DNA of 64,000 nucleotides. Source: a virus. The notes beneath the pieces are model-generated. The model was not told the DNA's origin. It saw only the letters and a program-made list of their open reading frames with translations, and did not search any database. This document shows positions 10,871 through 28,521 of the stretch, one piece after another. The position numbers and the translations under genes are program-made. Location: positions 43,633-107,632 of IMG/VR virus record IMGVR_UViG_3300031957_001682, one strand, 5' to 3'. Every line of letters starts with the position of its first letter. Within the stretch, counting starts at the first letter, position 1.

Positions 10871-11605
10871 TTAGAGATTCCTATGATGTTGAAACACAGG
10901 AATTTTAGTATCTCCATGACCCATTTGACGAAGGGCTTCCATACGATGACCACCTTCTTGCATTCCAGTGTAATTATTATTGTTAAAACTTAACTCCGGC
11001 ATACCTATTGGCATCCCTGCTTTTATTCCCTCTATGATTCGAGCGATGTTTTCACGGCTTCCTCCTTGTGAGGTAAACTGGCGACCATCCCATCTGTATT
11101 CAGCATCTCTTCCCCCTACGGGTGGTTCATTGTGTTCTTCTGCACCTTGTCCTACAATGTCAAAATAATCATTCGGTGTCATTTGAGTAATTTTATCATT
11201 TTTACCATAAGCATAAGGTTGACCACCAATCACGGGTTCGGAGAAATCCATATTGTAAGCCATTCGTACACCCGGTATATCAGTATCAACAATAGGTGCT
11301 TTGACTAAGACGCTCTTGACAATTGTAGGTTTACCGCCTACGCCTTGTTTTTTTGCACGCTTGCGTTTGGTAGCGGCTTGCTTTTGACCCTCGGACATTG
11401 AGCCGCTGGTCTTAGGTGTTTTACTTGATACTTTGACGGAAGGACGACACTTTGGATAACCCTTGCTTGATTTACTTGCTTTAGAACGCCCACATGGTGG
11501 GTGCTTGCCGTCTTTGTCTTTGCGTGACACATCAACCCACTTTTCTTTGAACCAACGGTTCAAATCCTTAACGATGAGAACATCGTAGCAGGTACATCGA
11601 GTCAT
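10871..11605 (-). CDS. Two-domain protein: basic phage domain (RWFKEKWVD..CGR..YPKCRP) fused to a ParB/Srx-like domain
   Basis: The N-terminal basic domain is common in marine viruses. The C-terminal QEGGHRMEAL resembles the ParB-N GxHR motif. The linker is IVKSVLVKA. Confidence 0.55.
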   Translation of the reverse strand: MTRCTCYDVLIVKDLNRWFKEKWVDVSRKDKDGKHPPCGRSKASKSSKGYPKCRPSVKVSSKTPKTSGSMSEGQKQAATKRKRAKKQGVGGKPTIVKSVLVKAPIVDTDIPGVRMAYNMDFSEPVIGGQPYAYGKNDKITQMTPNDYFDIVGQGAEEHNEPPVGGRDAEYRWDGRQFTSQGGSRENIARIIEGIKAGMPIGMPELSFNNNNYTGMQEGGHRMEALRQMGHGDTKIPVFQHHRNL

Positions 11606-11959: not shown

Positions 11960-12448
11960 TCAATCACTTCTTTGCGTAAAAGGATTTGGTGGGTCACTAA
12001 AATCTAAGACTCTTTCTTTAGCATGTTGCGGAGGGGGTGCTTGTGGCATCGTACTTCGAGTCATCTGTCTTTGTTGAGCGAAAGATGCTGGATTGATTGT
12101 ACCGCCGGGCGTTGAAGGTGTGGTAGGTACATCATCACCAAGTTCCGGTGATTTAGTTTCATTCTTTTCTGCATTAGGGTCATTTACATTTCCCATTTGC
12201 ATACGGGCTTGTTGATGTTCTTCTCTCCCTGCTCGCATTCGTGCAATAGGAGTTGAAAATGGTTTACCTGTTTTATCAGTTTCTTTCATCTTCAAAAATT
12301 TCCAAGCGTCACCCATTGGGATTGCTTTCTTTTTGCTGTCCGGGTCTGCTGTTTTTTCCGGCGACTTAGGCGGCTTACCACCAAGTGCAATTACAACAAC
12401 CATGCCTTTCTTTTTCTTTTTATCGTCTTCTTTCATGGTACTAACCAT
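11960..12448 (-). CDS. Hypothetical low-complexity protein carrying the PMGDAWKFLK tag
   Basis: 162 aa ORF directly downstream of the terminase. Confidence 0.55.
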   Translation of the reverse strand: MVSTMKEDDKKKKKGMVVVIALGGKPPKSPEKTADPDSKKKAIPMGDAWKFLKMKETDKTGKPFSTPIARMRAGREEHQQARMQMGNVNDPNAEKNETKSPELGDDVPTTPSTPGGTINPASFAQQRQMTRSTMPQAPPPQHAKERVLDFSDPPNPFTQRSD

Positions 12449-13923
12449 CCGTCGCCAGTTCCTTTATTTCGATGTGGCATACCACCGATGTACTCATCGA
12501 GTCCCGGTAGTATGTCATCGAGTAGTTGCACTGAACCTTTGAACTCTTTTGTTCCCCAGTTCGCTAAAGCAAGTGCCATTGCCAAGTCATCGTGAGTACC
12601 GACCGATTCAAGTCGCCCATTCTTTTGCATACCGAATCGGTTCAATTCTTCTTCTAATTTGTGAGTGAATGTACGACTTCGCTCATCACCATACGGCAAT
12701 TGAATGTGTCCTTGTTCAAAAGCCATAAGCAAAGACATGAACATACTTTCTTTGCGCTGGCGTGTTGTCATAAAAGTACGAATAGGAATATCGTTTCTCA
12801 TGTCTTGAAGTTCAGCGGCAAACATTCGCTGGAAGTTGTTTCCTTCAAGTTCAATCAAATCCGGCTGGAAGCGATTGTTAAGAGTGAGAATGTGTTTTTT
12901 CTGTGCTAATCCACCAAGTCCTTTTTCGTGAACGATACCGACAATTTGCTTTATGTTTTCACCGGGTGGTGTACGAAGCACAAGCATGGCTGTGTAGTCA
13001 GCGTTCTTATCCGAAGCAATCGCTGTGTCCCATCCAATGAAGTGCTGTCCGAACACACCAGCGGGATTACCTTCTTCGTCGTATTCGGTATCAGCCCTGT
13101 CAAGTAATACCAGTTCATTGTTGCGAGCCTCATTTAGAATTGTAGCAGGGAACATACTCGCAACATCGTGAATAGGTTCACACAAATACTCACGGCTGAA
13201 TTGGATAGCGGGCATGGACATACGCCGTTGCTCAAGTGCCTCAAGATTCCACCGTTCCGGCCAAAGCGCATTACCTTCCCCATCAATAGCAGGGTATGTT
13301 TCGACACGGAATGTTTCTTTTTGCTCAAGTTCTGCGTACAAATCGTTGTACGAAAACGGTGTACCGACCATCATCAAACGAGAAGAGTGGTGCAGAACAG
13401 GCAAAAGAACACCATAGAACCAGTCAGCGGCACGCTGTAGTTCTCCACCTGTAGTACCCCAAAGAATATCGTCGCAAACGACCACATCGGGGTGGAAACC
13501 ACGGGTAGCACCACCAACGGACTTAGCCATCAATCGGCTACCGTTAGTGAACTCAAAGTACGACTTAGCCCACGGTCGGCCACCTTCGGGCTTGAGGTGT
13601 CGAAGAATATCGGATGATTCAATGTTGTTGCGAATAAATCGCATGTGTTCAAGCGTCTGTTCAAGAGAGTGAGAAAAAATCATGATGTGTGTACCGGGTT
13701 TGAAAGCGGCAATCCAAAGAGCATAGGCCATGAACAAAGTGGATTTACCGTGGTCACGACTCGCTTTAACACAGTAGTATCGGTGTTCGTTCAATCCTGT
13801 TTCCCAAGACTCGTGGTGATGACTGTAATGAAAGCCCAAAATTTCTGTAAAGAAATACTTGAATGACTTGGCCGACATTTTGCTATCCATCTCGTGGATA
13901 AACGCATTCATGTCCTCTCCCAT
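12433..13923 (-). CDS. terL: Terminase large subunit
   Basis: Walker A SRDHGKST, Walker B VVVCDD, coupling motif GTP, and RNase H-like nuclease motifs (GWDTA, HDDLAMALALA). Start likely ATG 13923 after SD GGTGA. Confidence 0.92.
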   Translation of the reverse strand: MGEDMNAFIHEMDSKMSAKSFKYFFTEILGFHYSHHHESWETGLNEHRYYCVKASRDHGKSTLFMAYALWIAAFKPGTHIMIFSHSLEQTLEHMRFIRNNIESSDILRHLKPEGGRPWAKSYFEFTNGSRLMAKSVGGATRGFHPDVVVCDDILWGTTGGELQRAADWFYGVLLPVLHHSSRLMMVGTPFSYNDLYAELEQKETFRVETYPAIDGEGNALWPERWNLEALEQRRMSMPAIQFSREYLCEPIHDVASMFPATILNEARNNELVLLDRADTEYDEEGNPAGVFGQHFIGWDTAIASDKNADYTAMLVLRTPPGENIKQIVGIVHEKGLGGLAQKKHILTLNNRFQPDLIELEGNNFQRMFAAELQDMRNDIPIRTFMTTRQRKESMFMSLLMAFEQGHIQLPYGDERSRTFTHKLEEELNRFGMQKNGRLESVGTHDDLAMALALANWGTKEFKGSVQLLDDILPGLDEYIGGMPHRNKGTGDGWLVP

Positions 13924-13927
13924 TGTA

Positions 13928-14758
13928 TCACCGTGTCTTAATATACATGAAAGCGGCGAGTTCACCAATTTCATTTGGTGTCATTTTGTAAAGATTATCG
14001 GGTCCGAGTAAGTCGAATAACATTCCATTAAACGCTTTGGTGGGCATCAATACAGGTCTTGGTTGTCCGGTCACGGGGTCTATGGATGCTTGATACTGCG
14101 CCATCCCCGATGGATTCATTTGTTGTTGAACGGTACTTGCCATATTTGACTGATTCAATACATTGGGAGGTAGTGGTGGATTCATTTGTTGTTCAACGGT
14201 ACTTGCCATATCTTGCTGATTCAATACATTGGGAGGTAATGGCACAGCAGGTGCGGCAGTTGCGGCAGGTTGGGGTAATGCAGGTATGGGTGCGGCAGGT
14301 GCAGATGCTACAGGTGCAGGTACGGATGGTGAAGTTGATACATTTACAAGACCAGTGGATGAAGGTAATGGTACTCCACCTTCATTTGCCGCCATACCCG
14401 GAGCGGGTAATGGGATAGAATTGGGTTTAACCCCGACATGAGAATTTCCTTCAATTTGTCTTGCTGTGAATGCCCCTGTTGGGTCAAGTCCTTGATAGGT
14501 GTACCCTGCTCCAAGTGGAGCGGCTATGTTGCCACCTTGCATTGCATCAGCGGTGCTTAAAGCAGTAGCCCCTAAAGCCGCACCTTTACCAGCAAGTCCA
14601 GCAAGTCCAACCAATCGACCTGTTCTGCTAACTTTGGAACCGGGTTTTGTACCACGACCACGAACCGCATTGAACAAATCCATTGCCGAAGGACTACCTT
14701 GACCCACTGTTTGAAATTGAGTCACATCTGCTTTTACCAAAACTTTGTTGCTCACCAT
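13928..14758 (-). CDS. Hypothetical Gly/Ala/Pro-rich putative virion protein
   Basis: 276 aa ORF with a glycine-zipper-like segment, an internal repeat and an N-terminal VLVK/A site. Confidence 0.6.
   Translation of the reverse strand: MVSNKVLVKADVTQFQTVGQGSPSAMDLFNAVRGRGTKPGSKVSRTGRLVGLAGLAGKGAALGATALSTADAMQGGNIAAPLGAGYTYQGLDPTGAFTARQIEGNSHVGVKPNSIPLPAPGMAANEGGVPLPSSTGLVNVSTSPSVPAPVASAPAAPIPALPQPAATAAPAVPLPPNVLNQQDMASTVEQQMNPPLPPNVLNQSNMASTVQQQMNPSGMAQYQASIDPVTGQPRPVLMPTKAFNGMLFDLLGPDNLYKMTPNEIGELAAFMYIKTR
14111..14238. repeat. 66-bp-period direct repeat x2 (PPNVLNQxxMASTVxQQMNP)
   Basis: Seen directly: 14111-14172 and 14177-14238. Confidence 0.85.
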
Positions 14759-14759
14759 A

Positions 14760-16961
14760 TCACCCCATGTTTGTTTTTATGACTTTGATAATCTTAGCAT
14801 CAACATTGTAGGACTTAGCGATGTTGTGCCAATCTCCCATTGTTTGATTGATTGTCACGACCTCACTTGCGGTTAGCCCGACATGTTTCGCCAGTGCGTG
14901 TGGATTGTTAAGATTACTGTTAATTTTAATCCCCTCGAATCCGGCTTCTTCTTGTTGCATTCGCTCTAATGCTTTCATCACTCGGTCCATTACCGGTAGG
15001 TGTGCATCTTCGCTTCTTAGGTACTGGTCAAGTAATTGCTGTCTTGGGTCGGAAAGTGATTGTTGCGCCCTTCTTTCAATCGGTGTTAAAAATTCATCCG
15101 GTGCTGGACTTGCTCGACCTCCACCACCAGCAACCATCATTTCTCTAAATTGCTGTGGTGTTTGATTTGCAATCTGTGGTCTAACTTGCTGGAACCGTGG
15201 GTCAAGAGGCGTAGCCGGTGGGCCTTGTGGTCTTACCGCTACAGGAGGAAGAGGTGCCGCACCGGAGGGAGGTGGTGAAGAAACCGGAACCTGCGAAAGA
15301 GCGGAAGCAGGGGATTCCGGTGCGACTGTATCACCACTTGGGCGAATTGGCATGGCTGTACTTTCTGCAAAGTCTTCCATAGGGTGTAGGTATGCATCCA
15401 TGTGAGGGTCGAGTGTGGCATCAACTCCTTCTTCGGGATAATCTAAAAATTGCATATTTTTTGCTGGTTCTGTTTTTATGTCACCAATGGGCATTTTTAC
15501 TGGCAAACCCTGTGATTCTGCTTGGTGGTCGGCTAATGCTTCGATAATACCACGAAAACGCTCGACTTGACCCATAAGCCGCTCATCGTATCGTACACCA
15601 AATGCGTTTAACTGCTCACTGTCAATTGAATGATTACTCAAATTACTTCGCTCGGAGTCATCATCACTTAGACCGGACCTGTGAGCGAGTGCCATAAGAC
15701 GGGCGGCAGTGGTGTCTTTTCCTTTGCTACCACCCCTACCGGGTTTGAAATGACGACTTTGTTCATCATAGGACAAACCTTCTTCTCCTTCACCATAGAT
15801 ACCCATGAGGCTATTGAAATGCTTGTTAAAATCACCTTGACCCGGCCTACCAAACAAATACATCATTGCTGGTACATTTGCCATATCTTGAATTAAACTT
15901 CTTCGTAGTTCACTATCTTGAAGAATGACACGAAGTGGGCGTTGAATCATTTCGGGACTCGCTAAAGTGCCCACATTGATTGTAGCGGGTACATCGGGAA
16001 TTGCATCTATGTTGCCCAAAGCGTTTGTAATGGCCCTTTCAGCCATTTGATATAATCCATTTTTGTGTTCCCAACTACCTTTTTTTCCGGCTTTTTGTCC
16101 ACTTGCTTTTGTGTTAGGATAAAAGAAAATGTCCGGTAGGTGGTGAGTAGTTGATTCAGTGTGTACCGCAGTTTGTTCACTGAAATAATCATCGGGTGCC
16201 CTTGACATGTGTTGTGTGCTTATTTGATTCGGATGTTCTTGATATGAAGCATCAACTCGACCTTTAGGTGCTGTTTCACGAGCGTAAATGTAAGGTCTTT
16301 TTACAAAAGTTAAATCCGATGATACTTCAAATGGAACTCCATGTTCTCTTTCAAGAATTTGACCAAGTTCGTGATTAAAAGGAATAGAATATGATTCAAT
16401 AAAACGACCCATTGGGGTATAGTTTTTGTCACCGGGGGTGAAATTTTTGTTAGTGTAAGTGGTAATCAAAGAACCATTTTTGGTTTTTGTTGGGCGTTCG
16501 GAGTGGCCTTCTGTGCTGTCACCCGGAGGTAGCATTCCAGCCCTAATTTTTCTCCACGCCATGTTGTCAAAAGGTGGTAATGCGTGCATTCCATTATTCT
16601 TATCATCATCACCTTTGTGACTTGTATGGTTTTGATTAAACAATTGAATTGCTTTGTTAATCAAATCGACAGGATGTGCTTTGATACCATGTTTTTCTAA
16701 AAACCACCCTAAGCGTGTAGCCGCCGCATCAATACCGTGTTGATAACTTCCCATTGGTGTGTTGTAGTGTAGTTCACCGTGGTCACCCGGAGCAAACTCA
16801 CCTTCAAGAATTTCTCCTTGAGCATGTGCAAAGGCGGGTACATCTTCTTCTGTAGGTGGTCGAAACGCTGTTGCCGGTGGGTTGCGAATCATTGCCGCAC
16901 CCTGTGGGGTAAAATGCTTCATTCCCCATGCTTTAATCAATGGAAAACGAACAGGTATCAT
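14760..16961 (-). CDS. Large hypothetical protein (putative internal virion protein)
   Basis: 733 aa ORF in the late operon with an N-terminal LIK/A site. Confidence 0.65.
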   Translation of the reverse strand: MIPVRFPLIKAWGMKHFTPQGAAMIRNPPATAFRPPTEEDVPAFAHAQGEILEGEFAPGDHGELHYNTPMGSYQHGIDAAATRLGWFLEKHGIKAHPVDLINKAIQLFNQNHTSHKGDDDKNNGMHALPPFDNMAWRKIRAGMLPPGDSTEGHSERPTKTKNGSLITTYTNKNFTPGDKNYTPMGRFIESYSIPFNHELGQILEREHGVPFEVSSDLTFVKRPYIYARETAPKGRVDASYQEHPNQISTQHMSRAPDDYFSEQTAVHTESTTHHLPDIFFYPNTKASGQKAGKKGSWEHKNGLYQMAERAITNALGNIDAIPDVPATINVGTLASPEMIQRPLRVILQDSELRRSLIQDMANVPAMMYLFGRPGQGDFNKHFNSLMGIYGEGEEGLSYDEQSRHFKPGRGGSKGKDTTAARLMALAHRSGLSDDDSERSNLSNHSIDSEQLNAFGVRYDERLMGQVERFRGIIEALADHQAESQGLPVKMPIGDIKTEPAKNMQFLDYPEEGVDATLDPHMDAYLHPMEDFAESTAMPIRPSGDTVAPESPASALSQVPVSSPPPSGAAPLPPVAVRPQGPPATPLDPRFQQVRPQIANQTPQQFREMMVAGGGGRASPAPDEFLTPIERRAQQSLSDPRQQLLDQYLRSEDAHLPVMDRVMKALERMQQEEAGFEGIKINSNLNNPHALAKHVGLTASEVVTINQTMGDWHNIAKSYNVDAKIIKVIKTNMG

Positions 16962-18625
16962 CCCATGTGCCCCCGCTTTGAAGTAAGATAACCAGCGGGG
17001 TCAAGTCCTAAACGACTTGAATTGGTTTCAAGATTTTGAGTAGGACCGTCATTCTTCTCATCTTCATCTTCATTCTGTTGCACACCGGCTGGATGCGCTG
17101 GCACTGCCCCTTCTTCAAAAGCCGACGCTGTACCCGCTTTTTTCATATTGGCTTTTTTTCTTTGAAGTTCAATTAACTGCCTCATCAATTGAAGCATTTC
17201 AACACGATTAGCGTGACGATTACCTTTGAGTAAATCACTTTCAGTACGCTCTTCACTCATCATCATTGTTGACGATGGTGCTGGCATACTCGGAACGCTA
17301 CTCATCGGTGGAGCCATCTGTGGCATTTGTGGCATGGCTGGCACACGAGGCATACGAGGCACACGAGGCATACGAGGGCGGCGCATTCTTCGGAGAGAAG
17401 GCTGTCGCATTTGTCCCGATTGACCCGGTAATAGACCAGTTAAACGCCCAGCACCAGTTGGTCCAGCAGTAAACGACCTTGCGCTGTGACGAGCGTGTGG
17501 AGAATATGTGTTGCGAACACCACCAAGAATTTTTTGTGATTCTTGCTGGCCCATGTATTGACGGTATTTTTGTGGGTCTTTACTCATGGGTTGCTTAGTC
17601 GCAATACCACGGTGACTCATTTCAACAGACAAGTGAGGCTTCATCAAACCTGTTTTCTTTCCACCCTTGATACCACGCATTCTTGCTTTAAATCGCTTCA
17701 TGGTTGCACCAACACCACCGCTTTGCCCACCCGGTGGTTTCTTGAATTGTCCAGTTGAAGGGCGGAACTCTCTTCGTTTTTCACGGCGACGACGAGCCTC
17801 TATTGTACCCATTGTGTCACGCTTAAGTAGTGTACTCCAAGCATCAGCCATTGGTTCACTCATGGTAAAACTTGTTTCATCATTAAACGGTACATCAGTA
17901 AAATCACGATATTTACCTTCTATATCATCAAACGGAGGTTGTGCATCATCAACTTGAAAATTATGTAAATCATATAATTTCTCAAAAAAATCTTCACGAG
18001 ATGTAGCACTTGCTAAGTGGTTTATGTCGGGTTGTTGGAAATCATCTGCAAGACCCTCATACAAATGGGGGTTATCTATCTGTTCTTGAATCCAATTATA
18101 CCATTCGGGGTGAACATCATTACGATTTGGCATTTTGTAATCGTGTTTGTATTGATTTTCACCGGGATGAACCGTAGGTTCTTCTTTCAACAATGTACTC
18201 CAAGCACCATCCATCGGCTCGCCTGTTCTTACGGCTGAATTACCCGTACCCATCGCTGAACCTGTACCTGTCTTTGCACCTGTGGCTAAATCGAGTAAAT
18301 GTCCACGACTACCAGCCGGTCCACCTTGAAGCCCTATCTCACGCTCATCATCACGCTTGTTACCGTCATCAAGACCGGGTTCTGTTTCCAATCCCGCCCC
18401 TTGACCTAACCCTTGAGATGGTTTAATTTTGATGTGTTTGATTTCTTTGGCCTTTTTCTTAGCCTCTTCTTCTTTGAGTTTTTTTGCTTCTGCCCGCTTT
18501 TCATTATCTTCGGGTGAAGTAGGGTTGTATTTACCCTCATCTTCATTAGCAGAAGAATACATGTGAGATGATTCACTACGGGGTGCATACATGCGTGTGT
18601 CCGAACCTCGACCCATAACCATCAT
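16958..18625 (-). CDS. Modular, largely disordered protein with two EPMxxAWSTLLK tags
   Basis: 555 aa ORF. Tags at about 18185-18220 and 17822-17857. A 9-bp repeat (PRM/PRV) lies at 17340-17377. Confidence 0.65.
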   Translation of the reverse strand: MMVMGRGSDTRMYAPRSESSHMYSSANEDEGKYNPTSPEDNEKRAEAKKLKEEEAKKKAKEIKHIKIKPSQGLGQGAGLETEPGLDDGNKRDDEREIGLQGGPAGSRGHLLDLATGAKTGTGSAMGTGNSAVRTGEPMDGAWSTLLKEEPTVHPGENQYKHDYKMPNRNDVHPEWYNWIQEQIDNPHLYEGLADDFQQPDINHLASATSREDFFEKLYDLHNFQVDDAQPPFDDIEGKYRDFTDVPFNDETSFTMSEPMADAWSTLLKRDTMGTIEARRRREKRREFRPSTGQFKKPPGGQSGGVGATMKRFKARMRGIKGGKKTGLMKPHLSVEMSHRGIATKQPMSKDPQKYRQYMGQQESQKILGGVRNTYSPHARHSARSFTAGPTGAGRLTGLLPGQSGQMRQPSLRRMRRPRMPRVPRMPRVPAMPQMPQMAPPMSSVPSMPAPSSTMMMSEERTESDLLKGNRHANRVEMLQLMRQLIELQRKKANMKKAGTASAFEEGAVPAHPAGVQQNEDEDEKNDGPTQNLETNSSRLGLDPAGYLTSKRGHMG

Positions 18626-19302
18626 TCCACCCCCATGTTTGCTTCAAGTTGCTTTTTAATTCGAGTCCATGTTTCCGGGCTTTCTTTACTTAATTCGATT
18701 GACAACACATTGATTGTTTGATTAATTTGTTGTCCGTCGCTTTGTGCGCCCCATTGGTCTTGGAACCGAAGTAGGTCTTTGACTGTTTCTCGCACTTCTT
18801 TATGCAATATAACAGCATCCCTTACGAAGCCATCTTCGTGTACACTCCCCTCATCAAGTAATTCGGAAAGTTTATGATTTAATTTTTGAGCGTTTGAGCG
18901 TAGTAATTCAATTTCTCGACCTGCTGTAAGTGCTACTTCTAACGCCGCTGTTTTTTGCACCAGCGGTTGAAAGTGATTTTTCATGTGACTATACACTACA
19001 CTTTCACTTATTTCAAGAGCCGTAGCAATGGCATCAGTAGTTCCTCCATTGTTAAAATACTCAAATTCGTATTCAGCCCGATTAGGTGAAGCACATACAG
19101 GGCAAGATGGATTTGCCGCCATGTGGTATTCACCCATGTGATTACGATAATGACGGTCAGCGGTATTGGCTCGCCATCCCATGTTTTTATCCATTTCTTT
19201 AGGTGTGATGTGACCTTGTAAGAGTTGTTCTTCTAACTCATCACGGTCTTCATGAATGCACATTCGGCAAGAGCGTTTGACAACTTTATCACCGCCCTCC
19301 AT
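18622..19302 (-). CDS. Tandem CxxC...HxxxH / HTH protein with C-terminal coiled coil; candidate terminase small subunit
   Basis: Two repeats (CRMC...HYRNH and CPVC...HMKNH), each enclosing an HTH-like segment. It heads the operon that leads to terL. Confidence 0.45.
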   Translation of the reverse strand: MEGGDKVVKRSCRMCIHEDRDELEEQLLQGHITPKEMDKNMGWRANTADRHYRNHMGEYHMAANPSCPVCASPNRAEYEFEYFNNGGTTDAIATALEISESVVYSHMKNHFQPLVQKTAALEVALTAGREIELLRSNAQKLNHKLSELLDEGSVHEDGFVRDAVILHKEVRETVKDLLRFQDQWGAQSDGQQINQTINVLSIELSKESPETWTRIKKQLEANMGVE

Positions 19303-19362
19303 GACAGTGCTACGAGTTGCCTTTAGAAAACTGTTATGGTAAATGTAGTGTTCGCAAAAAAC

Positions 19363-19653
19363 ATGTGGAGGGTAAAAAGAGTAGCAGGTGTGCCGCTTAA
19401 CAAAGAAAGTATTCGTAGCCTTACACAAGCCGCTAAGGATGTTGTAAAAGGTGAATACGCACCTACAAATTTAGTGAAAGAAAGACTTCGTATATGTGGC
19501 ACTTGTCCTCACGGTGGTACAAAATGCTCACTTTGTGGTTGTTTTTTGAAGTCTAAAACAGCATTGCTTAACTCGCAATGCCCAATACACAAATGGCCGT
19601 CAGCGAGTGATACGGGAATAAACACCAGTGAGCATAAGGAAACTACCAAATAA
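19363..19653 (+). CDS. Small Cys-rich phage protein (RLxICxxC...CxLCGCF..K...CPxxKW type)
   Basis: Characteristic Cys pattern common in viral genomes. Confidence 0.6.
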   Translation: MWRVKRVAGVPLNKESIRSLTQAAKDVVKGEYAPTNLVKERLRICGTCPHGGTKCSLCGCFLKSKTALLNSQCPIHKWPSASDTGINTSEHKETTK

Positions 19654-19851
19654 TCCTACAAGGTAATAAGAAACGCTGGCTGAATCCATTGTTCCTCCTT
19701 TAAAAATTAAAATCATAAGCATAGTCACAATAATAGAAATTAGTTGCACCATTACCATATCAATTATAATGCTTCGATTTGGATTTAACATATCGAGTGT
19801 AGTAGCGGCAAAGGAAGTTGGAATGTACCCTGTATAATCATATTCTTTCAT
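19600..19851 (-). CDS. Small two-TM membrane protein
   Basis: 83 aa with two hydrophobic stretches; SD GAGGTGA. Confidence 0.6.
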   Translation of the reverse strand: MKEYDYTGYIPTSFAATTLDMLNPNRSIIIDMVMVQLISIIVTMLMILIFKGGTMDSASVSYYLVGLFGSFLMLTGVYSRITR

Positions 19852-19855
19852 AATA

Positions 19856-20479
19856 TCACCTCATACCAATAAAACTGCGACCAAGACTACCAAGCCCTCC
19901 GCCGACTTTTTCCATTACACCTTCATTAGCAAGAGCCGCTGAAAGCGCACCACCCATCATAGACTGTTGAGCGAAAGTTGACAGTTGTTGTTGTTCCATT
20001 TCTGTTTGACTTACTTTCTGTGTAGCGGCGGCTTGAAGATTGGTAAATTGTCCCGTCACATTTTCTGCGCTCATAGTTTGCAAATTTGATGGAAGTGAAG
20101 TCACATCCATTTTCATTGTACCACTTTCTTCGTCAATAGTAAAAGTAGCATTACGAAGAACTTCAAGAACACTGAAACTCACAAGGTTGCTAAACATTTC
20201 AACAAGAGTTCCCATTTGTGGGCTGGCAACATATCGCTCAATAGGAGTAATACCTCGTAAAAGCATAATTTGAATTTCAAGTTCACTTGGAGGTGCTACC
20301 GGTTGTTGAGTAAATTGATTTTGTTGACCACCAAACATTCCTTGCATAATAGGGGCTTGACTCACACCCATCATTTGCTGATTAGCCCACGGATTTTGTT
20401 GTGTTGCGGGTGCGCCTAAATTCAAAGCACCGTTATTCATTGGTGTCGCACTTCCGCCTAATCCCAACATCTCACTCAC
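19856..20479 (-). CDS. Hypothetical Gln/Gly-rich protein of the GTPase operon
   Basis: 207 aa ORF with a C-terminal amphipathic/glycine-rich tail. Confidence 0.6.
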   Translation of the reverse strand: MSEMLGLGGSATPMNNGALNLGAPATQQNPWANQQMMGVSQAPIMQGMFGGQQNQFTQQPVAPPSELEIQIMLLRGITPIERYVASPQMGTLVEMFSNLVSFSVLEVLRNATFTIDEESGTMKMDVTSLPSNLQTMSAENVTGQFTNLQAAATQKVSQTEMEQQQLSTFAQQSMMGGALSAALANEGVMEKVGGGLGSLGRSFIGMR

Positions 20480-21425
20480 CTACCCCAATACTTTCTTGCT
20501 CAAGAGGGTTTTGATTGACTACTTGGGCTACTTGTTGTTGTACAAGTGCTTGAAAAGCCGGTGTTGCTTGTTGTTCTAACGCTAATTCATGTTGAAATAT
20601 ACGCAAATCAAAAGAAACCGTAGTAATGTCATTTTCTCCTGTAATTGGGTTGGTGTAATGATTCACATTGATGCCTTTTGTTTTGCGAGAATCTTTTTCC
20701 AGTTCAGCAAAAAAAGGCTCATATTTTTTCAACATAGTAGGAGTAGGGTCTTTTTTGGTGACAGCCGAAACAGGAACAGTCACAATTGATACACCCTGCT
20801 TGACTCTATCTCGTAGTCGTTTTGGATTTGATTCGTTAATGCGGTCTTCTTCTGCTTCCCACTTAACGAGTAAATGGTATAGATGCATGTGTTCGGGGCA
20901 ATAAGTTCCTCTCATTTTACGACCACTGGTGACTCGCTCTAAAGCCACAAACGCTTCCGGCTCACCTGTCACTGGATTTTGCCAATACATTTCCCAAAGA
21001 CTTCGCCCTGTATCTTCATCGCAAATCTTAGCGTACAAATTATCATATTGAATTAAAGTAGCACAATCACACCCATCGACTACACACACACTTGTTTGTT
21101 TATTGTAGTGGTATTTTCTTCCAAATACCCATCGTAAAGGATTTAAAAGCCCTCGCTTTGAGGGTGTAAGAAGTTTGTACGCTTGCTTAATATCTTTTTT
21201 TCTTGCTTTTTGTGGGTCGGGATGACGACTTGGGTAAAAATTAACTTTAGGAACTTGCAAATTATTTTGACTTGCAACTTTTTGCATTGCGCCTTGTGCT
21301 GTTGCTTGTTCCATTAAAGCGGCATACGAAAGAGTATCATTACCCTGTTGACTTAACGCCATTAAATGTGCTTGGTTTACACTACCGAGATTTGCTTGGT
21401 TTTGTTGACTAAACTGTGGTATCAT
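20472..21425 (-). CDS. Hypothetical Zn-binding protein of the GTPase operon
   Basis: 317 aa ORF with CVVDGCDC and YCPEH motifs. Confidence 0.6.
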   Translation of the reverse strand: MIPQFSQQNQANLGSVNQAHLMALSQQGNDTLSYAALMEQATAQGAMQKVASQNNLQVPKVNFYPSRHPDPQKARKKDIKQAYKLLTPSKRGLLNPLRWVFGRKYHYNKQTSVCVVDGCDCATLIQYDNLYAKICDEDTGRSLWEMYWQNPVTGEPEAFVALERVTSGRKMRGTYCPEHMHLYHLLVKWEAEEDRINESNPKRLRDRVKQGVSIVTVPVSAVTKKDPTPTMLKKYEPFFAELEKDSRKTKGINVNHYTNPITGENDITTVSFDLRIFQHELALEQQATPAFQALVQQQVAQVVNQNPLEQESIGVGE

Positions 21426-21604
21426 TGTTTTTCACCTTTGTACATTTTAAGATAAAAACCATTTTGTAAGTCACCGCAAAGTTCCCATTTGATTTTATCA
21501 CCTGCTGATAATTCTAATAATTCTGCCATTACCGCTGGTATGACGGTTCTAACACATTTACTTTTTTTATTCACGGCAATTACAGTTGTAGTTTTGTTTA
21601 ACAT
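21422..21604 (-). CDS. AbrB/SpoVT-like swapped-hairpin DNA-binding protein
   Basis: RTVIPAVMAELLELSAGDKIKW matches the AbrB pattern. Confidence 0.65.
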   Translation of the reverse strand: MLNKTTTVIAVNKKSKCVRTVIPAVMAELLELSAGDKIKWELCGDLQNGFYLKMYKGEKQ

Positions 21605-21613
21605 ATTTTTCCC

Positions 21614-22330
21614 TCAAGTTGTTAATAAGTCAATCATGGTTTCTTCCACATTCCATCCTATTCGTGTAGCCATAAAAGACCTGCGAGTAGGTATGTTTGC
21701 TTTTTGAAGTCGAATTAAATCATCTCGAAATGCATCAAAGATTTTGTGTTCACCAATGCGGTTTTGTTGCCAAAGCATAGCGGCATTTTCATCAAAAAAT
21801 CGGTCGGCTTTGTTAGCCACAAGCATAACTAAACGAGGTGCGTACTTTTTACCCTTCCAACGACTTTTGAAGTTTCTATACCGATATGAGCGATTGATTA
21901 AACTATCAACAAGATACTTGAAGCCAGCAATTTGTTGCAATGCTTCTTCACCACCTTTTATTGCCCTGTCATCAAAAACAAATAAAACGGCTTCAACTTG
22001 TCTTCCTACCATATCGTCAATCCAAAGATTCCAAAACCGTTCTTGTCCTCCTACATCGGATGAATACACCACTCGCTTTTGTCCTTTCCAAGAAATGCGT
22101 TTACGAGTTGCTTTAGGCATCATGTATCGACCAAGTAATTTCATGTGTGAAGTTCGCTCTTCATCACTTATTTCTTCCATTTCACCCGGAGTTGTCATGT
22201 ATCGGTCAAGTGTAGTTTTACCTACCATTGCCGCTCCATAGACACCTACTTTTCTTGGTCGCCAAGAGTTGTATAACATTTGACCATAAAGAGCCGCACC
22301 TACAAGTGCTGAACCTGCTGGGTCAACCAT
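21614..22330 (-). CDS. Ras-superfamily small GTPase, Arf/Sar1-like
   Basis: G1 GAAMVGKTT, G3 DVGGQERFWNLW, VLFVFD, G4 NKAD; N-terminal hydrophobic/amphipathic helix. Confidence 0.85.
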   Translation of the reverse strand: MVDPAGSALVGAALYGQMLYNSWRPRKVGVYGAAMVGKTTLDRYMTTPGEMEEISDEERTSHMKLLGRYMMPKATRKRISWKGQKRVVYSSDVGGQERFWNLWIDDMVGRQVEAVLFVFDDRAIKGGEEALQQIAGFKYLVDSLINRSYRYRNFKSRWKGKKYAPRLVMLVANKADRFFDENAAMLWQQNRIGEHKIFDAFRDDLIRLQKANIPTRRSFMATRIGWNVEETMIDLLTT

Positions 22331-22583
22331 TTAACTTCCCCCATATCCAATCTGCAAGATTTTGTACTTTTTTCCAAACCCATTCAACGGTGTTTTCCCA
22401 AAAAGATTCACCTGTGGTTAGTTCCCATAGACTGATTATCAATGCAGTAATAAAACAAAAAAAGACTGTTCTTATCCAACCGATTCCTTTTTCGTAATAT
22501 GTGTCAAGAGTGTTTTGAGTGTGCATTGCACGAAGTGTGGCCTCGGTTGAATCATCAGTAGGGGTTTTGAAGATACGACCCAT
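22323..22583 (-). CDS. Small membrane protein
   Basis: 86 aa with one TM helix and a Trp-rich amphipathic C-terminal helix; overlaps the GTPase start. Confidence 0.6.
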   Translation of the reverse strand: MGRIFKTPTDDSTEATLRAMHTQNTLDTYYEKGIGWIRTVFFCFITALIISLWELTTGESFWENTVEWVWKKVQNLADWIWGKLNG

Positions 22584-22592
22584 TTAACCAAC

Positions 22593-23123
22593 TCACTTTT
22601 TCTTTTCTTCTTCTTCTTTTATACCAAGATTAATTGGTTGTTTTACTTCTGCTTCATGATTTGGAATACCCGGATTAAATTTTTCAGCGTCATGCTGTGA
22701 AATTAACGACTGTGAACCACCCGGTACACCCCAACTTGGAGGCATTTTACCGGGGTTCATTTCCATCCAGCGCAATTCTTGTTCAAGTTGTGCTTCTTGC
22801 ATACGCATTTCCATATCATTGCGTCGATTATCAAAACTAAGTTGCATTTGGCGGTATCGGTCTTGCCTACTCTTCTCAACTTGTGTTGTTCGTACTCTTT
22901 CTTGCATGTTTTGTTCAAAAAACATCTTAAAAAAGTAATATGCAATACCTTGAACAAAAAATGCCGCCATAGCATAAGTAAAACCATTTAACATTGGTGT
23001 ATCGCTAATTAACCATAATTCTGCATCAAAAACACCAATTGCGATACCTACTAATGCCGATTGAGCCAAAATTAGCCCCATAAGTCGTATTTCTGCGTCC
23101 GAGTCTTGCCTGTTGCCTTGCAT
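22593..23123 (-). CDS. Two-TM membrane protein with coiled-coil cytoplasmic domain
   Basis: 176 aa with two N-terminal hydrophobic helices followed by a Q/E/R-rich coiled coil. Confidence 0.65.
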   Translation of the reverse strand: MQGNRQDSDAEIRLMGLILAQSALVGIAIGVFDAELWLISDTPMLNGFTYAMAAFFVQGIAYYFFKMFFEQNMQERVRTTQVEKSRQDRYRQMQLSFDNRRNDMEMRMQEAQLEQELRWMEMNPGKMPPSWGVPGGSQSLISQHDAEKFNPGIPNHEAEVKQPINLGIKEEEEKKK

Positions 23124-23171
23124 GTTGCTCGTTATTGGTCAATTTGGAAGCCAATATAAGCATTTCGCTAT

Positions 23172-23303
23172 AATTGTCATCATTGTCATAATACCATTCA
23201 AAATAATGAGTAGTATTACTATATATTTAGTGTAGGGGGGTGAAAATGACAAACATTAGTCAATTTGTTGACTACGATGATGACAATTATGACAATTGAC
23301 AAT
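23172..23303. repeat. Non-coding TGACAA/TTGTCA iteron-like element A around an AT-rich core
   Basis: TTGTCA at 23174 and 23183; TGACAA at 23247, 23281, 23290 and 23297; AT-rich centre. Confidence 0.6.
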
Positions 23304-26011
23304 CAAAGTAAGGTTCCTTTGTCCTTGAAATGCCTCGCTCGGTTGGTATGAGGGTCTTCGGGAACAATAGTGTGCTGGCTGGTGTGGCTCATGTCCGGTC
23401 CACCCTGTCCCATAATGTGTCGTTGTCGGCGTTCACGGTTAAGTTCCTCTCGATACTTCACACGCTCCGGGCTGGACTCGTACTTCTTGTCGTACTCCAA
23501 CTTATGCCGCTTGGCTTCGGGGCTTACACGCTCTTTAAGTAATCGCATAGCAATCTCCATTGGTTCGCCTTGCTGTATCATTTGCGGTTGTTGAGATTGT
23601 AAATGATTCCAATACTCATAGGTATCGGGTCTATGTTGTAGCATTTCATTAACCCCCGTTTGATTTGATTGGTCCGATTGATGTGCACCATATTCATGAG
23701 CATACACTCTTGCTTGATTAGCCAACGCAACTCTTTGTTTTTCAGCATCCATTTCGGCTTGGTTTGTAGGTTTGGTCTTTAATCTTTGTAAAAAAGAGGC
23801 TCCTTGCATATCTGTAGGATATTCGGGTTTTACTTGAGATTGTAATGGCCCATGTTGTTGTTCTGCCCATTCATTTATTTCGGGGTTAATTAGACTGTGC
23901 GTATATTCATGCCCAAGAGTGTTTGCTAATCCTTGTATAGATTCATCACTGTCGTTTATACCACGCACATCAGCCCCAATAAAATCCCCATTTGATTGAA
24001 GTCGTGGTTGAGAGCCACCGGTTGTGTAATCACCTTTATTTTGAATTTCTTGCACAGTATTTTTATCCACTCCACTCATTCGATTCATAGTTTGATTGCG
24101 AGGTATTGATAGCAATGCTTCATTGCTAATATCGGCAGGTGTATAAAATCCCTGCATACCTTCTTCGTCATCACCAATATAGAACTCTTTGAGCAAACGC
24201 ATAGCAATATCCATTGGTTCGCCTTGCTGTATCATTTGCGGCTGTTGTACTTGCGGCTGTTGTACTTGCGGCTGTTGTACTTGCGGCTGTTGTACTTGCG
24301 GCTGTTGTAATGGTAATTGTTGTTGATTTGGGTCTGTTGGTTGTACAACTGGGTTAGGTTGCATGTATTGAGCCATTCGTTGATTATAGTCATCCGTAAT
24401 TTGTTCACGATTTTTCCCCCATCTCATTCTGTATGGCTCTTTAGGTCTAACTTCACCTCTTTGATTTGTTTGTTGAAGATTGGGTGTATCAATTTCTGTA
24501 TTTTCTCTTTGTGCTATTTGCCCTCCTATTGATAAAGCGGGTTGTGACATGGCTGTATTTATCTCATTTTGGTTATTTGTTCTCGCATGTGCTGTGTTTT
24601 CTAATACTGAATTTGTAATGGGTGTATTGGTTAAAAATTGTCTTGGTATATTTCCACCGTAATGTGTTGCATCACTAAAATCAACTGTTTGTCCTTGCGC
24701 TGTTTTAAAATTATGACTTGGGCCTATGAAATTTGGATGGTTTTGGTCGAAAGCGGCTTGTCTTATTGCTAATAATTTAGGTTTGGAGTGTGTACCTCCA
24801 CCATGATGACCCACACTTCTATCAATTGCATAACTAAGTGCTTCCGAAGGATTTGTACTCATGGTGCGGTAATTATCACTATGTGTTTTTAAACCATCTC
24901 CACCCATTATTTTTCTTGCATCATCACCCGTAGTTCCGTGATAAGCAACTACAGGGCCGTAAGGTGAAGGAAAGTCTTCATGATGCTCGCCTAAATTAGT
25001 TTGATATTTAAGCAACCGCATAGCGAGGTCCATTGGTTCGCTTCTATAGAATTGTGTTGGGTTTTTTAATGCACCCGGAATTGCAGTTAATTGGTCATCG
25101 AGTAATTGCATTTGTTCGGGCGAAGTATGTGTTTCATCTAATTCTGCTACACGCCCCGATGGTCCCATAGTTCGTTCCCATTGTTGAAAAGTACCATGTA
25201 ATGGGTCCATACCCCCACCTATGTTTCCTGTTAAATCGTTGAGGTTTTCTGTTATAGAAGAAATTACTTTTCCATCCGGTCCTATTTTTGTTGGTACAAT
25301 ATCTTGGAATGATTTTATACCATAGGCTCTTGCTGTTTGTGGGTCAATTAAAGCACCCGGAATTTCAGCATCCATTATCATTTGGGCAAGTTCACGAGCA
25401 CGATGACGCTGTGCTCCTTCCAGTCCTATTCTTGATGGAGGGGCATCTTTACTTCTTGGTAAAAACATACTTGCGGCTCTTTGAAGGTCATAAAGCATAA
25501 ATGGGTTTTTGTTAAGTCGGCGTACACTGTCTTCTTCTAAATCACCATAAATGATTCCTTCGGGGTCTTGATTTTTACCGTATCTTTCCGGTGTACTTTC
25601 AAAACCATACAAATTTAAAGGCCATGCTCTTTTACTTTCGGGTACATCAACAAATTCGCTACCTTGTCTTGGTGTTAAACCCATTGCATGACTCGGAAAA
25701 ACAAACCTTCCTCCAAGTGGCTCATCAGTCATTATGGTTTCAAGTGGTAGTTCTTCCCCTCGACCCATTTCTAAATTATGGTCCCTAAAACTTGTATTTT
25801 CACGATTGGCAAGTTTTCTTGCTAAATGTAAATTTTTACTTGGGTGGTATTTACTGGTATTTTGTGCAGAAGTTAATCTAAGTGACCTATTTGGAGAGTA
25901 TCTTTGGTGAAAACCAGCCATAAGTTCATCGAATTTTCGCTCATTATACTCACGAATAATTTCATCCCAACGCTCATTTTGGTTTTTAAGAAGGAGGAAA
26001 GCCTGTTCCAT
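23303..26011 (-). CDS. Tag-delimited polyprotein: unknown module, ADP-ribosyltransferase-like, zincin metallopeptidase-like, HNH-like
   Basis: Four EPM(D/E)xA(M/F)xLLK tags. Module motifs: YHGT...STNPSEALSYA; HEYTH plus HEYGAH; DMSH...NRARH. Start is ATG 26011 or upstream, up to 26038. Confidence 0.75.
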   Translation of the reverse strand: MEQAFLLLKNQNERWDEIIREYNERKFDELMAGFHQRYSPNRSLRLTSAQNTSKYHPSKNLHLARKLANRENTSFRDHNLEMGRGEELPLETIMTDEPLGGRFVFPSHAMGLTPRQGSEFVDVPESKRAWPLNLYGFESTPERYGKNQDPEGIIYGDLEEDSVRRLNKNPFMLYDLQRAASMFLPRSKDAPPSRIGLEGAQRHRARELAQMIMDAEIPGALIDPQTARAYGIKSFQDIVPTKIGPDGKVISSITENLNDLTGNIGGGMDPLHGTFQQWERTMGPSGRVAELDETHTSPEQMQLLDDQLTAIPGALKNPTQFYRSEPMDLAMRLLKYQTNLGEHHEDFPSPYGPVVAYHGTTGDDARKIMGGDGLKTHSDNYRTMSTNPSEALSYAIDRSVGHHGGGTHSKPKLLAIRQAAFDQNHPNFIGPSHNFKTAQGQTVDFSDATHYGGNIPRQFLTNTPITNSVLENTAHARTNNQNEINTAMSQPALSIGGQIAQRENTEIDTPNLQQTNQRGEVRPKEPYRMRWGKNREQITDDYNQRMAQYMQPNPVVQPTDPNQQQLPLQQPQVQQPQVQQPQVQQPQVQQPQMIQQGEPMDIAMRLLKEFYIGDDEEGMQGFYTPADISNEALLSIPRNQTMNRMSGVDKNTVQEIQNKGDYTTGGSQPRLQSNGDFIGADVRGINDSDESIQGLANTLGHEYTHSLINPEINEWAEQQHGPLQSQVKPEYPTDMQGASFLQRLKTKPTNQAEMDAEKQRVALANQARVYAHEYGAHQSDQSNQTGVNEMLQHRPDTYEYWNHLQSQQPQMIQQGEPMEIAMRLLKERVSPEAKRHKLEYDKKYESSPERVKYREELNRERRQRHIMGQGGPDMSHTSQHTIVPEDPHTNRARHFKDKGTLL
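24236..24309. repeat. 15-bp tandem repeat x5 (TTGCGGCTGTTGTAC), encoding a QQPQV linker
   Basis: Seen directly in the sequence. Confidence 0.9.
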
Positions 26012-26091
26012 TGGCTCTAACTCTCTACGCATACGCACCAGTTGGTGGTAAAAAGCGATACCATTTAGAATGCTCGCCCGCTACGAGAGTC

Positions 26092-27675: not shown

Positions 27676-28521
27676 TCATTGCAATAACGGTACTTTATGT
27701 TCCTTTTCGTTTAATGCAATTTGTTGTGCGATAGTTGATGCAACTTTAAGTGTGTCAATGCACACACCGGTTTCAAAACCCCATACATTAAGATGCAATA
27801 CCAGTGTTTCGGTTGACAAGTTTGCTCCACTATTGTCAACAAACGGACAACCGCCGAGTCCACCGATGCTTGAGTCAAACTCACGAACACCAGCCATAAG
27901 ACCCGCACGAATTAGTTGCAATGCTTTTTCTTCGTCACCTTTGTGATGTAAATGCAATGCGGGAGTCATACCTTCGAGTATAGCCATCTCGGACCACAAA
28001 TGTACCTCTTCTCTTGTTCCTACCCCCACTGTATCAGCAAACACTACAGTATTGCCAAACATTTTTGCATCTTTAATGCACGATTGCATGGTTAATGGGG
28101 AAACTTGACCACTGAATGGACTACCAAACGCCATGCTGATGTACACACGCACATTTTCCTTTGGTGTTTTATCCAAGAATGTTTTGTACATCAACACAAG
28201 TTCACTTCGGGTTTTTCGCATGTTTTTCATGTTGAAGGTTTCACACGGGCTAATGACTATGTTGATTTTTTTAGCACCAACAGCAATGGCTCGGTCAAAA
28301 CCACGCTTGTTCATGACAAGCGCACCGCCACGCTGATACACTTTTTCAGCATCAGCCATTTGCGGCACAAGTTTTGGGTGTGCAAAACTAACTTCTTCAA
28401 TTTCTGTCAAGCCAGCGTCGTATAATGCATCAATAAGTTCGGTTTTTTTAGAAGTGGGTATTGGAAATTTAAGTGATTGCAAACCGTCACGAGGGCCAAC
28501 CTCGTACACGGTCACTTTCAT
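27676..28521 (-). CDS. hmgL: Hydroxymethylglutaryl-CoA lyase (auxiliary metabolic gene)
   Basis: EVGPRDGLQ, SFxHPKLVPQMAD, ADTVG, metal-binding HxH (LHLH) and GLGGCPF (catalytic Cys): the DRE-TIM HMG-CoA lyase signature. Confidence 0.9.
   Translation of the reverse strand: MKVTVYEVGPRDGLQSLKFPIPTSKKTELIDALYDAGLTEIEEVSFAHPKLVPQMADAEKVYQRGGALVMNKRGFDRAIAVGAKKINIVISPCETFNMKNMRKTRSELVLMYKTFLDKTPKENVRVYISMAFGSPFSGQVSPLTMQSCIKDAKMFGNTVVFADTVGVGTREEVHLWSEMAILEGMTPALHLHHKGDEEKALQLIRAGLMAGVREFDSSIGGLGGCPFVDNSGANLSTETLVLHLNVWGFETGVCIDTLKVASTIAQQIALNEKEHKVPLLQ

Follow-up and report, generated by a model that had tools for sequence, protein, structure and literature searches.

The GTPase cassette

The window analysed here, a stretch of 64 kb, corresponds to bases 43633-107632 of a virus record of 107,632 bp (IMGVR_UViG_3300031957_001682) that carries direct terminal repeats and is rated complete. 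On the minus strand of this window seven genes follow one another between positions 19600 and 23123, and one of them (21614-22330) encodes, according to the translation of its open reading frame (ORF), a small GTPase of 238 amino acids (aa). Hydropathy, alignments and a match to the Pfam family PF04014 identify its neighbours as three small membrane proteins, a Cys/His protein, a Gln-rich protein and an AbrB-type protein, much as the initial annotation had described them. The block looks like one transcription unit. The GTPase represents a new viral small-GTPase family, and the genes around it form a new kind of membrane cassette.

The protein possesses the motifs G1 (G32-AAMV-GKT39), G3 with switch II (D92-VGGQ-ERFWNLW103), G4 (N173-KAD176) and G5 (M220-A-T222). 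All 75 distinct homologues keep residues G32, G37, K38, T39, D92, G95, W103, N173, K174 and D176; the G1, G3 and G4 motifs claimed initially are intact in the translated ORF, and their nucleotide-binding residues are fixed throughout the family. Switch II obeys the pattern D[IVLM][GA]G[QEDH][ED]R[FY]WNLW[IV][DE]DMV, and amid these almost frozen surroundings the position of the catalytic glutamine (96) varies, with Q in 40, E in 25, D in 8 and H in 2 of the 75 homologues. The G3 signature DVGGQ..F..LW on which the initial annotation relied therefore stands for D92, G95 and W103 and fails for its glutamine. Sar1 has a histidine at this position. Since Q, E, D and H are all polar and could position a water molecule, GTP hydrolysis is plausible, perhaps not by the scheme used by Ras and Arf with their GTPase-activating proteins (GAPs).

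An AlphaFold2 model computed from a 13-sequence alignment (predicted local distance difference test, pLDDT, 88; predicted template modelling score, pTM, 0.85) shows a Ras-like fold preceded by a helix (residues 4-23). Switch I forms a long stretch in this model (47-74), and insertions occur near residues 154-160 and 181-188. Searching the PDB with Foldseek gave at least 500 matches at E≤0.001, the top ones all being small GTPases. The G1, G3, G4 and G5 motifs and the Ras-like α/β fold together place the protein in the Ras superfamily (TRAFAC class); the gene encodes a real small GTPase of this superfamily that is under strong constraint. In the switch I region (47-75), R59-T60-x-H62 is invariant and P72-x-x-T75-R-K-R fully or nearly so. 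More than one threonine in this region is a candidate for the G2 threonine, and the basic TRKR patch might serve as a contact site for lipid or for a partner protein.

A helix before strand β1 is also found in Arf, Sar1 and ArvA. In the viral GTPase it is hydrophobic (mean hydrophobicity ~0.6), lacks a Gly2 and does not span the membrane, its summed Hessa ΔG being +8.4 kcal/mol versus −2.6 to +0.7 for the transmembrane (TM) helices of the neighbouring proteins. An assignment to SR-beta (PF09439) was rejected because the helix is not TM-competent (Hessa +8.4); SRPRB was matched by 1/13 family members, at E 0.19.

Genes of the cassette and its borders

The junctions between the seven genes, all on one strand, range from an 8-nt overlap to a 9-nt gap, and co-transcription is plausible because of this spacing of −8 to +9 nt. 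An intergenic spacer of 179 nt (23124-23302, minus strand) lies upstream. It is A+T-rich and contains the TATA-like boxes AAATATATAG and GCGAAATGCTTATATTGG, the latter about 35 nt before the ATG; judged by the known layout of B recognition element (BRE) and TATA box, it is a candidate archaeal promoter. The opposite end of the block meets a convergent Cys-rich ORF of 105 aa (19336-19653, plus strand) that is DUF6171-like, its match to PF19668 (E 1.3e-4, 22.7 bits) lying under the cut-off of 27. This ORF overlaps the 3′ end of the last cassette gene by 54 nt and is on the opposite strand in every one of the 42/83 loci that keep it. With a promoter-like spacer in front and a convergent gene at the end, the layout suggests that positions 19600-23123 are read as one transcription unit. 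Conservation counts refer throughout to 80 related IMG/VR viral loci, except for that of this boundary gene, made on 83.

The first gene (22593-23123, minus strand) encodes 176 aa. Its hydropathy profile reveals two hydrophobic helices (14-32 and ~46-68), and this hairpin is followed by a charged coiled-coil segment (~70-125) and an acidic/basic tail, both ends of the protein being predicted to be cytoplasmic. A homologue occurs in 79/80 loci with a median identity of 54%; no Pfam, PHROG or PADLOC family matches it. The second gene (22323-22583, minus strand), also in 79/80 loci, encodes 86 aa with one TM helix (34-56) and a Trp-rich C-terminal tail, preceded by a highly conserved N-terminal segment of 33 residues (IFKTP.DDS.E.TLRAMH..NT.D..YE). 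Its stop overlaps the start of the GTPase gene by 8 nt. A complex prediction of the GTPase with the 86-aa protein, GTP and Mg gave scores of 0.00 and 0.13 versus a mark of 0.32, which speaks neither for nor against binding. The third membrane protein, encoded by the last gene of the unit (19600-19851, minus strand), has 83 aa, two TM helices (27-50 and 58-78) and a short basic C-terminus, and is present in 80/80 loci. The positive-inside rule predicts a cytoplasmic location, on the side where the GTPase is, for the coiled coil in the 176-aa protein, for the conserved N-terminal segment of the 86-aa protein and for the two termini of the 83-aa protein.

Three soluble proteins complete the cassette. 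A protein of 60 aa (21422-21604, minus strand) is of the SpoVT-AbrB/MazE swapped-hairpin type: PF04014 was hit by 6/6 scanned members of its family (best E 1.2e-5), the window copy by itself reaching E 0.03, and a profile search of the PDB returned nothing useful. It is the variable member of the cassette, found in 22/80 loci at E≤1e-5. The Cys/His protein of 317 aa (20472-21425, minus strand) is present in 80/80 loci with a median identity of 64% and has 767 homologues, all unnamed. Its invariant residues C114 and C176-P-x-H179-x-H181-x-x-H184 probably form a metal site; its AlphaFold2 model (pLDDT 61) gave a best structural Z of 4.8, which is noise, and a sequence-profile search of the PDB was empty. 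The third protein, of 207 aa (19856-20479, minus strand), has according to the alignment an N-terminus rich in Gln, Gly and Met and a conserved central domain (PPSE..., ...TSLP..LQTMSAEN...), and occurs in 80/80 loci. As its homologues begin at MLGLGG, the true start is probably the ATG at 20470. It matched no family, and the best result of a PDB profile search, a phosphotransferase system (PTS) IIA protein at E 0.025, was taken as chance.

None of the cassette proteins matched a holin or endolysin family in Pfam, PHROGs or NCBIfam, a negative of little weight given the diversity of holins, and none of about 30 other window proteins did so in Pfam, nor 5 in PHROGs, in a scan that covered part of the genome. 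To this extent the earlier remark that no holin or endolysin was recognisable in the window is borne out.

Just beyond the cassette, a 268-aa protein (18622-19428, minus strand; probable true start near 19302) contains two CxxC pairs and gave weak helix-turn-helix hits (GerE, HTH_40). It is kept in 80/80 loci and in the distant relatives and may be DNA-binding, as a regulator or small terminase. The large flanking genes carry a repeated tag, EPMEQAFLLLK, EPMDLAMRLLK, EPMDIAMRLLK and EPMEIAMRLLK in the product of 23303-26038 and EPMDGAWSTLLK and EPMADAWSTLLK in that of 16958-18625 (both minus strand). This motif is found in none of the seven cassette proteins, nor in the adjacent 268-aa protein.

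Conservation of gene order

In 80/80 loci the genes stand in the same order: 176-aa protein, 86-aa protein, GTPase, the AbrB-type protein where present (22 loci), 317-aa protein, 207-aa protein, 83-aa protein, 268-aa protein and a 555-aa protein. The GTPase is the best-conserved member of the cassette, with a median identity of 73% and a minimum of 64%, its neighbours standing at 50-64%. Two relatives whose GTPases are 36-40% identical to that of the window keep GTPase, 317-aa protein, 207-aa protein, the 83-aa protein in one case (L084) and 268-aa protein in order. L084 also has a gene for a coiled-coil protein with two TM helices, the positional analogue of the 176-aa protein, and a single-TM gene upstream of the GTPase.

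A second lineage, represented by 140 loci, encodes a GTPase 32% identical to that of the window. Its order is a two-TM protein with a coiled coil, again in the position of the 176-aa protein, a 74-aa single-TM protein, the GTPase, a Cys protein and a Gln-rich protein. The N-terminus of the 74-aa protein, DESTLAYDLQRAH, recalls that of the 86-aa protein, DDSTEATLRAMH, which occupies the same position. The Cys protein is homologous to the 317-aa protein (hhalign 95.5%, E 1.6e-8) and the Gln-rich protein is linked to the 207-aa protein by a weak profile match (67.7%, E 5e-5). The 83-aa protein was not seen in this lineage, and the AbrB-type gene is absent from it as well as from L083 and L084. 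Since lineage 2 keeps the order of two-TM protein, single-TM protein, GTPase, Cys protein and Gln-rich protein, the deep core of the cassette comprises these five genes, which travel as a unit. The arrangement that the initial annotation had taken for an operon is accordingly maintained in 80/80 loci and in two distant lineages. For a distant family member, P0164, no relative on a viral contig was found.

This linkage bears on the possibility that the protein is a cytosolic regulatory GTPase, acting in translation, in replication or, together with the AbrB-type protein, in transcription, and that its membrane neighbours merely reflect gene packing. An AbrB/MazE-type DNA-binding protein does adjoin the GTPase, the N-terminal helix of which is not a TM segment, and weak sub-threshold Pfam hits also extend to Roc, MMR_HSR1, Gtr1/RagA and EF-Tu. 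However, the order of two-TM protein, single-TM protein and GTPase is kept down to 32% GTPase identity while the AbrB-type gene is the least conserved of all, the GTPase gene starts before the stop of the 86-aa membrane-protein gene, and the structure is closest to that of membrane-recruited Arf-type GTPases. We consider a purely cytosolic role very unlikely.

The virus and its host

In both lineages the cassette is invariably placed among the late, structural genes. In the window it is on the same strand as, and upstream of, the genes for the large terminase (12433-13974, minus strand) and a phage-type portal (7763-9550, minus strand), and in lineage 2 it begins two genes beyond the major capsid protein. 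The plus strand carries the genes for a family B DNA polymerase (60244-62634), an SNF2 helicase and a DUF932 protein. The best matches of the polymerase among 50,697 phage records are haloarchaeal tailed viruses, with ~24% identity. The window contains no tRNA genes.

The great majority of GTPase homologues stem from marine metagenomes, those of Tara among them, and lie on contigs that reach ~100-150 kb. In a single-cell genome of Candidatus Poseidoniales, a 106-kb contig carries a relative with 36% identity and, 9 kb downstream of it on the same strand, a terminase homologue (45% identity). Magroviruses are viruses of Marine Group II archaea (PMC5434244). Taken together, the genome content, the marine homologues and the Poseidoniales single-cell contig fit a complete magrovirus-like tailed virus of 107.6 kb whose host is probably a member of the Marine Group II archaea, a group abundant in the ocean.

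Some further features of the genome may be mentioned here. Two contigs of ~8 kb that carry the cassette were binned in metagenome-assembled genomes (MAGs) of Maricaulis (L082) and Parvibaculum (L083), with GTPases 72% and 40% identical to that of the window; they are most likely viral contigs binned in error in these alphaproteobacterial MAGs. The G+C content is ~39-47% in the minus-strand late half of the window (1-30000) and ~44-52% in the plus-strand replication half (30000-64000), and the GC skew changes sign near 30-36 kb. Between terminase and portal lie genes for a 432-aa protein with an HNH-endonuclease-like C-terminus (9547-10845, minus strand; phrog_5046, E 2.8e-9) and a DUF5872 protein (10871-11605, minus strand; E 1.2e-10). 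A 281-aa protein (27676-28521, minus strand) matches Pfam HMGL-like (E 3.4e-19), a TIM-barrel family of the HMG-CoA lyase/isopropylmalate synthase type, and is a possible auxiliary metabolic gene product.

The position within the structural module, next to terminase and portal here and to the major capsid protein in lineage 2, could suggest that the cassette provides a morphogenesis factor, i.e. a platform or checkpoint, anchored in the membrane, for the assembly of capsids or the packaging of DNA, with the GTPase controlling a step of assembly instead of acting on the membrane itself. A scaffold-like role is conceivable for the Gln-rich helical protein, and the flanking genes 23303-26038 and 16958-18625 specify the EPM..A...LLK tags, which we take to be typical of the late proteins of this virus. 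Yet no cassette protein shares the tag or matches a PHROG head, tail or packaging family, and from one lineage to the other the cassette as a whole shifts its position with respect to the structural genes. Moreover, no requirement for membrane proteins or small GTPases is known in the assembly of tailed viruses, and we therefore regard a role in morphogenesis as unlikely.

Relationship to Arf and other small GTPases

The initial annotation had placed the protein with Arf and Sar1, and its structure does point in that direction. The top 16 structures retrieved by VIA-align all belong to the Arf family (Arl8b, Arf6, Arf1, Arl1, Arl6, Arl3, GerdArfR1 and HodArfR1), with Z scores of 17.8-16.2 and a root-mean-square deviation of 2.3-5.2 Å over 151-175 residues; RagA-like proteins (Z 15.9) and Rab (15.5) follow. 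The single AlphaFold2 model resembles Arf structures in the GTP state. Likewise, the family profile searched against PDB sequences found GerdArfR1, one of the Asgard ArfR proteins (PDB 8OUN/8OUM; bioRxiv 10.1101/2024.02.28.582541), at E 1.3e-6, ahead of Arl8 (1e-4), Rab33B (2.5e-3) and KRas (0.01), and in this search the viral N-terminal helix aligns with the amphipathic helix of GerdArfR1. The sequence DxGG[QEDH] with an invariant Trp at +7 (W103, in 75/75; cf. W78 of Arf1) is shared with Arf, Sar and G-alpha. The nearest non-viral clusters in the ESM Atlas are bacterial G domains, with PF00025 in 17-67% of their members, and some Joint Genome Institute (JGI) records bear the automatic label "GTPase SAR1 family protein".

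Membership of the Arf family is another matter. The window protein gave no PF00025 hit at E≤1, let alone one at the gathering threshold; among 13 family members PF00025 was found below threshold in 7 (best E 0.0048) and Roc in 8. The aromatic residue that precedes the G3 aspartate in Arf (W66 of Arf1) is absent, S, A or T standing before D92 in all family members, and so is the switch I motif PT(I/V)GFN, a 28-residue segment with its own invariant residues taking its place; these Arf motifs were compared as they appear in 32 giant-virus Arf copies. In a maximum-likelihood tree of 48 rows (LG+C20+F+G4), the viral family, Arf, Rab and ArvA each form a strongly supported clade, the viral family on a long stem. 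The best tree joins the viral family to Arf at 69/33 support, and grouping with Rab (approximately unbiased test, p-AU 0.38) or with ArvA (p-AU 0.34) is not rejected. The references, drawn from 32 Arf and 106 Rab genes located on giant-virus contigs by a DNA pattern and from Thermoplasmatota ArvA located through the neighbouring arvB gene, were picked by G3 motifs and did not comprise Sar1, SR-beta, G-alpha, Rag, MglA or ArfR, so that this tree is not the last word. The phylogeny that the initial annotation had proposed thus shows the family as a long-branch clade of its own, with Arf, Rab and ArvA equally possible as its nearest group.

Profile comparison leads to the same picture. With hhalign scores of 91 (viral family and Rab) and 70 (viral family and Arf) versus 183 (Arf and Rab), the viral family is much further from Arf and Rab than these are from each other. 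Being about as far from Arf as from Rab, it says little about Arf evolution, for which a relevance had been suggested. In our reading this is a new, deeply divergent small-GTPase family whose fold and switch II look most Arf-type, a resemblance to Arf and not membership.

The family is also isolated. A phmmer search of 1.84 billion cluster representatives found 77 clusters at E≤0.001 and no cellular GTPase family among them; a profile search of 5.8 billion proteins returned the family itself and no cellular GTPase even at E≤10; and tblastn detected no relatives in 50,697 phage records. A single one of 201 Poseidoniales genomes matched, through the viral contig itself, and 0/200 others did; a recent capture from the host was rejected on this ground. 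The grouping with ordinary host GTPases that would have counted against the initial annotation is therefore not seen in these genomes. PF00025 was found in 0/101 Poseidoniales genomes, but the model also hits 12/14 control genomes and for that reason is a poor discriminator. The papers on magroviruses and archaeal tailed viruses that could be searched make no mention of a GTPase.

Among the closest known systems is ArvA/OapA of Haloferax, a small GTPase whose N-terminus forms an amphipathic helix and which, as shown by experiment, drives the budding of vesicles together with ArvB and the Zn-ribbon protein ArvC (PMC10927574). In an hhalign comparison the viral family matched the ArvA profile (94.6%, E 7e-8) over 76 columns that include the helix end, P-loop, switch I and β2-β3. 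Both share a P-loop of the form (V/I)G(I/V)YG....GKTTL and small partner genes downstream, among them one for a Zn-type protein. In contrast, the G3 motif of ArvA is DTPGI and its C-terminal half resembles Era/Der. Comparison of the cassette proteins with ArvB and ArvC (OapB/OapC) gave probabilities below 1% throughout, with no PF09846 or PF09845 hit. The different G3, the match limited to 76 columns and the missing ArvB and ArvC partners rule out that the cassette is an ArvABC operon. ArvB (PF09846) is present in 123/301 Thermoplasmatota genomes versus 0/151 Poseidoniales genomes searched; the virus would therefore supply a helix-bearing GTPase, of a different system, to a host order apparently devoid of the Arv system.

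In such a host, where the ArvB marker was absent from the 151 genomes searched, a vesiculating GTPase supplied by the virus is conceivable, and it would fit the partial profile match to ArvA, which takes in the N-terminal helix, the P-loop and switch I. The cassette might then alter the envelope for superinfection exclusion, receptor masking, the production of vesicles or decoys, or transport, and not for release; small membrane proteins are typical of exclusion systems. Yet exclusion genes are usually early or lysogeny genes and variable, while this cassette belongs to the late module and ranks with the best-conserved regions of the genome, its GTPase never falling below 64% identity in the 80 loci. 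With ArvB and ArvC partners absent too, a function in host takeover or exclusion appears quite unlikely to us, and a defence system was ruled out since there was no PADLOC hit.

A proposed membrane-linked switch late in infection

We tentatively propose that the GTPase is part of a membrane-linked switch that acts late in infection, most plausibly in the release of progeny; judged from gene context, we see this as a possibility that falls somewhat short of an even chance. The GTPase would be a nucleotide-dependent switch at the cytoplasmic face of the host membrane, where the GTP state would free the hydrophobic N-terminal helix. The protein might then attach to the membrane itself, to cytoplasmic portions of the membrane proteins encoded by the two genes upstream, or to both. 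Candidate docking surfaces are, in the 86-aa protein, the conserved N-terminal 33 residues and, in the 176-aa protein, the coiled coil. The Cys/His and Gln-rich proteins could serve as regulator or effector. The cassette would be transcribed with the head and packaging genes, and it follows from the proposal that the complex would act late, when it might reshape or breach the membrane to release progeny; hydrolysis of GTP would time this event or commit the complex to it.

This model is suggested by the Arf-like architecture of the protein, its fixed linkage to small membrane proteins with a start-stop overlap, and the position in the late module. It also draws on the absence of the family from the host, on the precedent of budding by ArvA in Euryarchaeota and on the fact that egress of archaeal tailed viruses is uncharacterised, the main players in their lysis and egress having been called "completely uncharacterized" (PMC10791045).

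Several observations weigh on the other side. Neither phylogeny nor hhalign backs a specific affinity to Arf. The N-terminal helix noted in the initial annotation is indeed predicted and hydrophobic, but it is weakly amphipathic (hydrophobic moment, μH, 0.20 here; 0.20-0.48 in the family, median 0.30), and confidence in the AlphaFold2 model is low over residues 1-20 (pLDDT 50-65). The variation between Q, E, D and H at position 96 makes classical GAP-assisted hydrolysis uncertain. No lytic, pore-forming or coat fold is recognisable in any of the partners of the GTPase. Finally, placement in the morphogenetic module fits assembly as well as egress.

A bolder version of the late membrane switch would make the five-gene core the egress machine of marine archaeal tailed viruses, a device for GTP-timed membrane disruption or budding with no counterpart among holin-endolysin, pyramid (virus-associated pyramid, VAP) or ESCRT systems and independent of the eukaryotic Arf/Sar1 coats. 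We think it doubtful in this full form. Nonetheless, with its strict conservation, its place in the late module and its combination of a GTP switch with membrane proteins, the cassette offers a concrete candidate for the egress step that can be cloned, and magroviruses rank with the most abundant viruses in surface ocean waters. At the least, a prokaryote-type virus would here be using a small GTPase in a new manner.

Comparison with known systems

The S-R-Rz genes of phage lambda form a holin-type lysis cassette just before the terminase genes. The likeness of the magrovirus cassette to lysis cassettes of this type is positional only, small membrane proteins being encoded in a late operon beside the packaging genes, and the 83-aa protein has the size and the topology, with two TM helices, of a class II holin. 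It differs in that it comprises no endolysin, no spanin and nothing similar to a holin family. To our knowledge, a GTPase together with two orphan soluble proteins occurs in no known lysis cassette.

Ras-superfamily GTPases encoded by viruses are also known from giant viruses, whose Rab, Ras, Ran and Arf copies are the only viral structural neighbours found in BFVD. These are close copies of eukaryotic host genes, and the 32 giant-virus Arf copies that we fetched keep the MG... myristoylation start and PTIGFNVE. For the magrovirus family, by contrast, there is no close cellular relative, and the virus that encodes it is a tailed virus of prokaryotic type.

With the Arf family (Arf1/Arf6, Arl1/3/6/8, Sar1 and Asgard ArfR) the viral protein shares a Ras-like G domain preceded by an N-terminal helix, a G3 of the DxGGQ type with Trp at +7, NKxD and a G5 of the SA type. 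It differs by its extra inserts (238 aa versus ~180), by its origin from a tailed virus of a euryarchaeon, where it is flanked by membrane-protein genes, and by forming a clade outside crown Arf. It thus adds a virus-borne lineage to the prokaryotic small GTPases with an N-terminal helix, next to ArvA and Asgard ArfR, and bears on how often GTPase-driven membrane work arose outside eukaryotes, with no specific tie to the origin of Arf.

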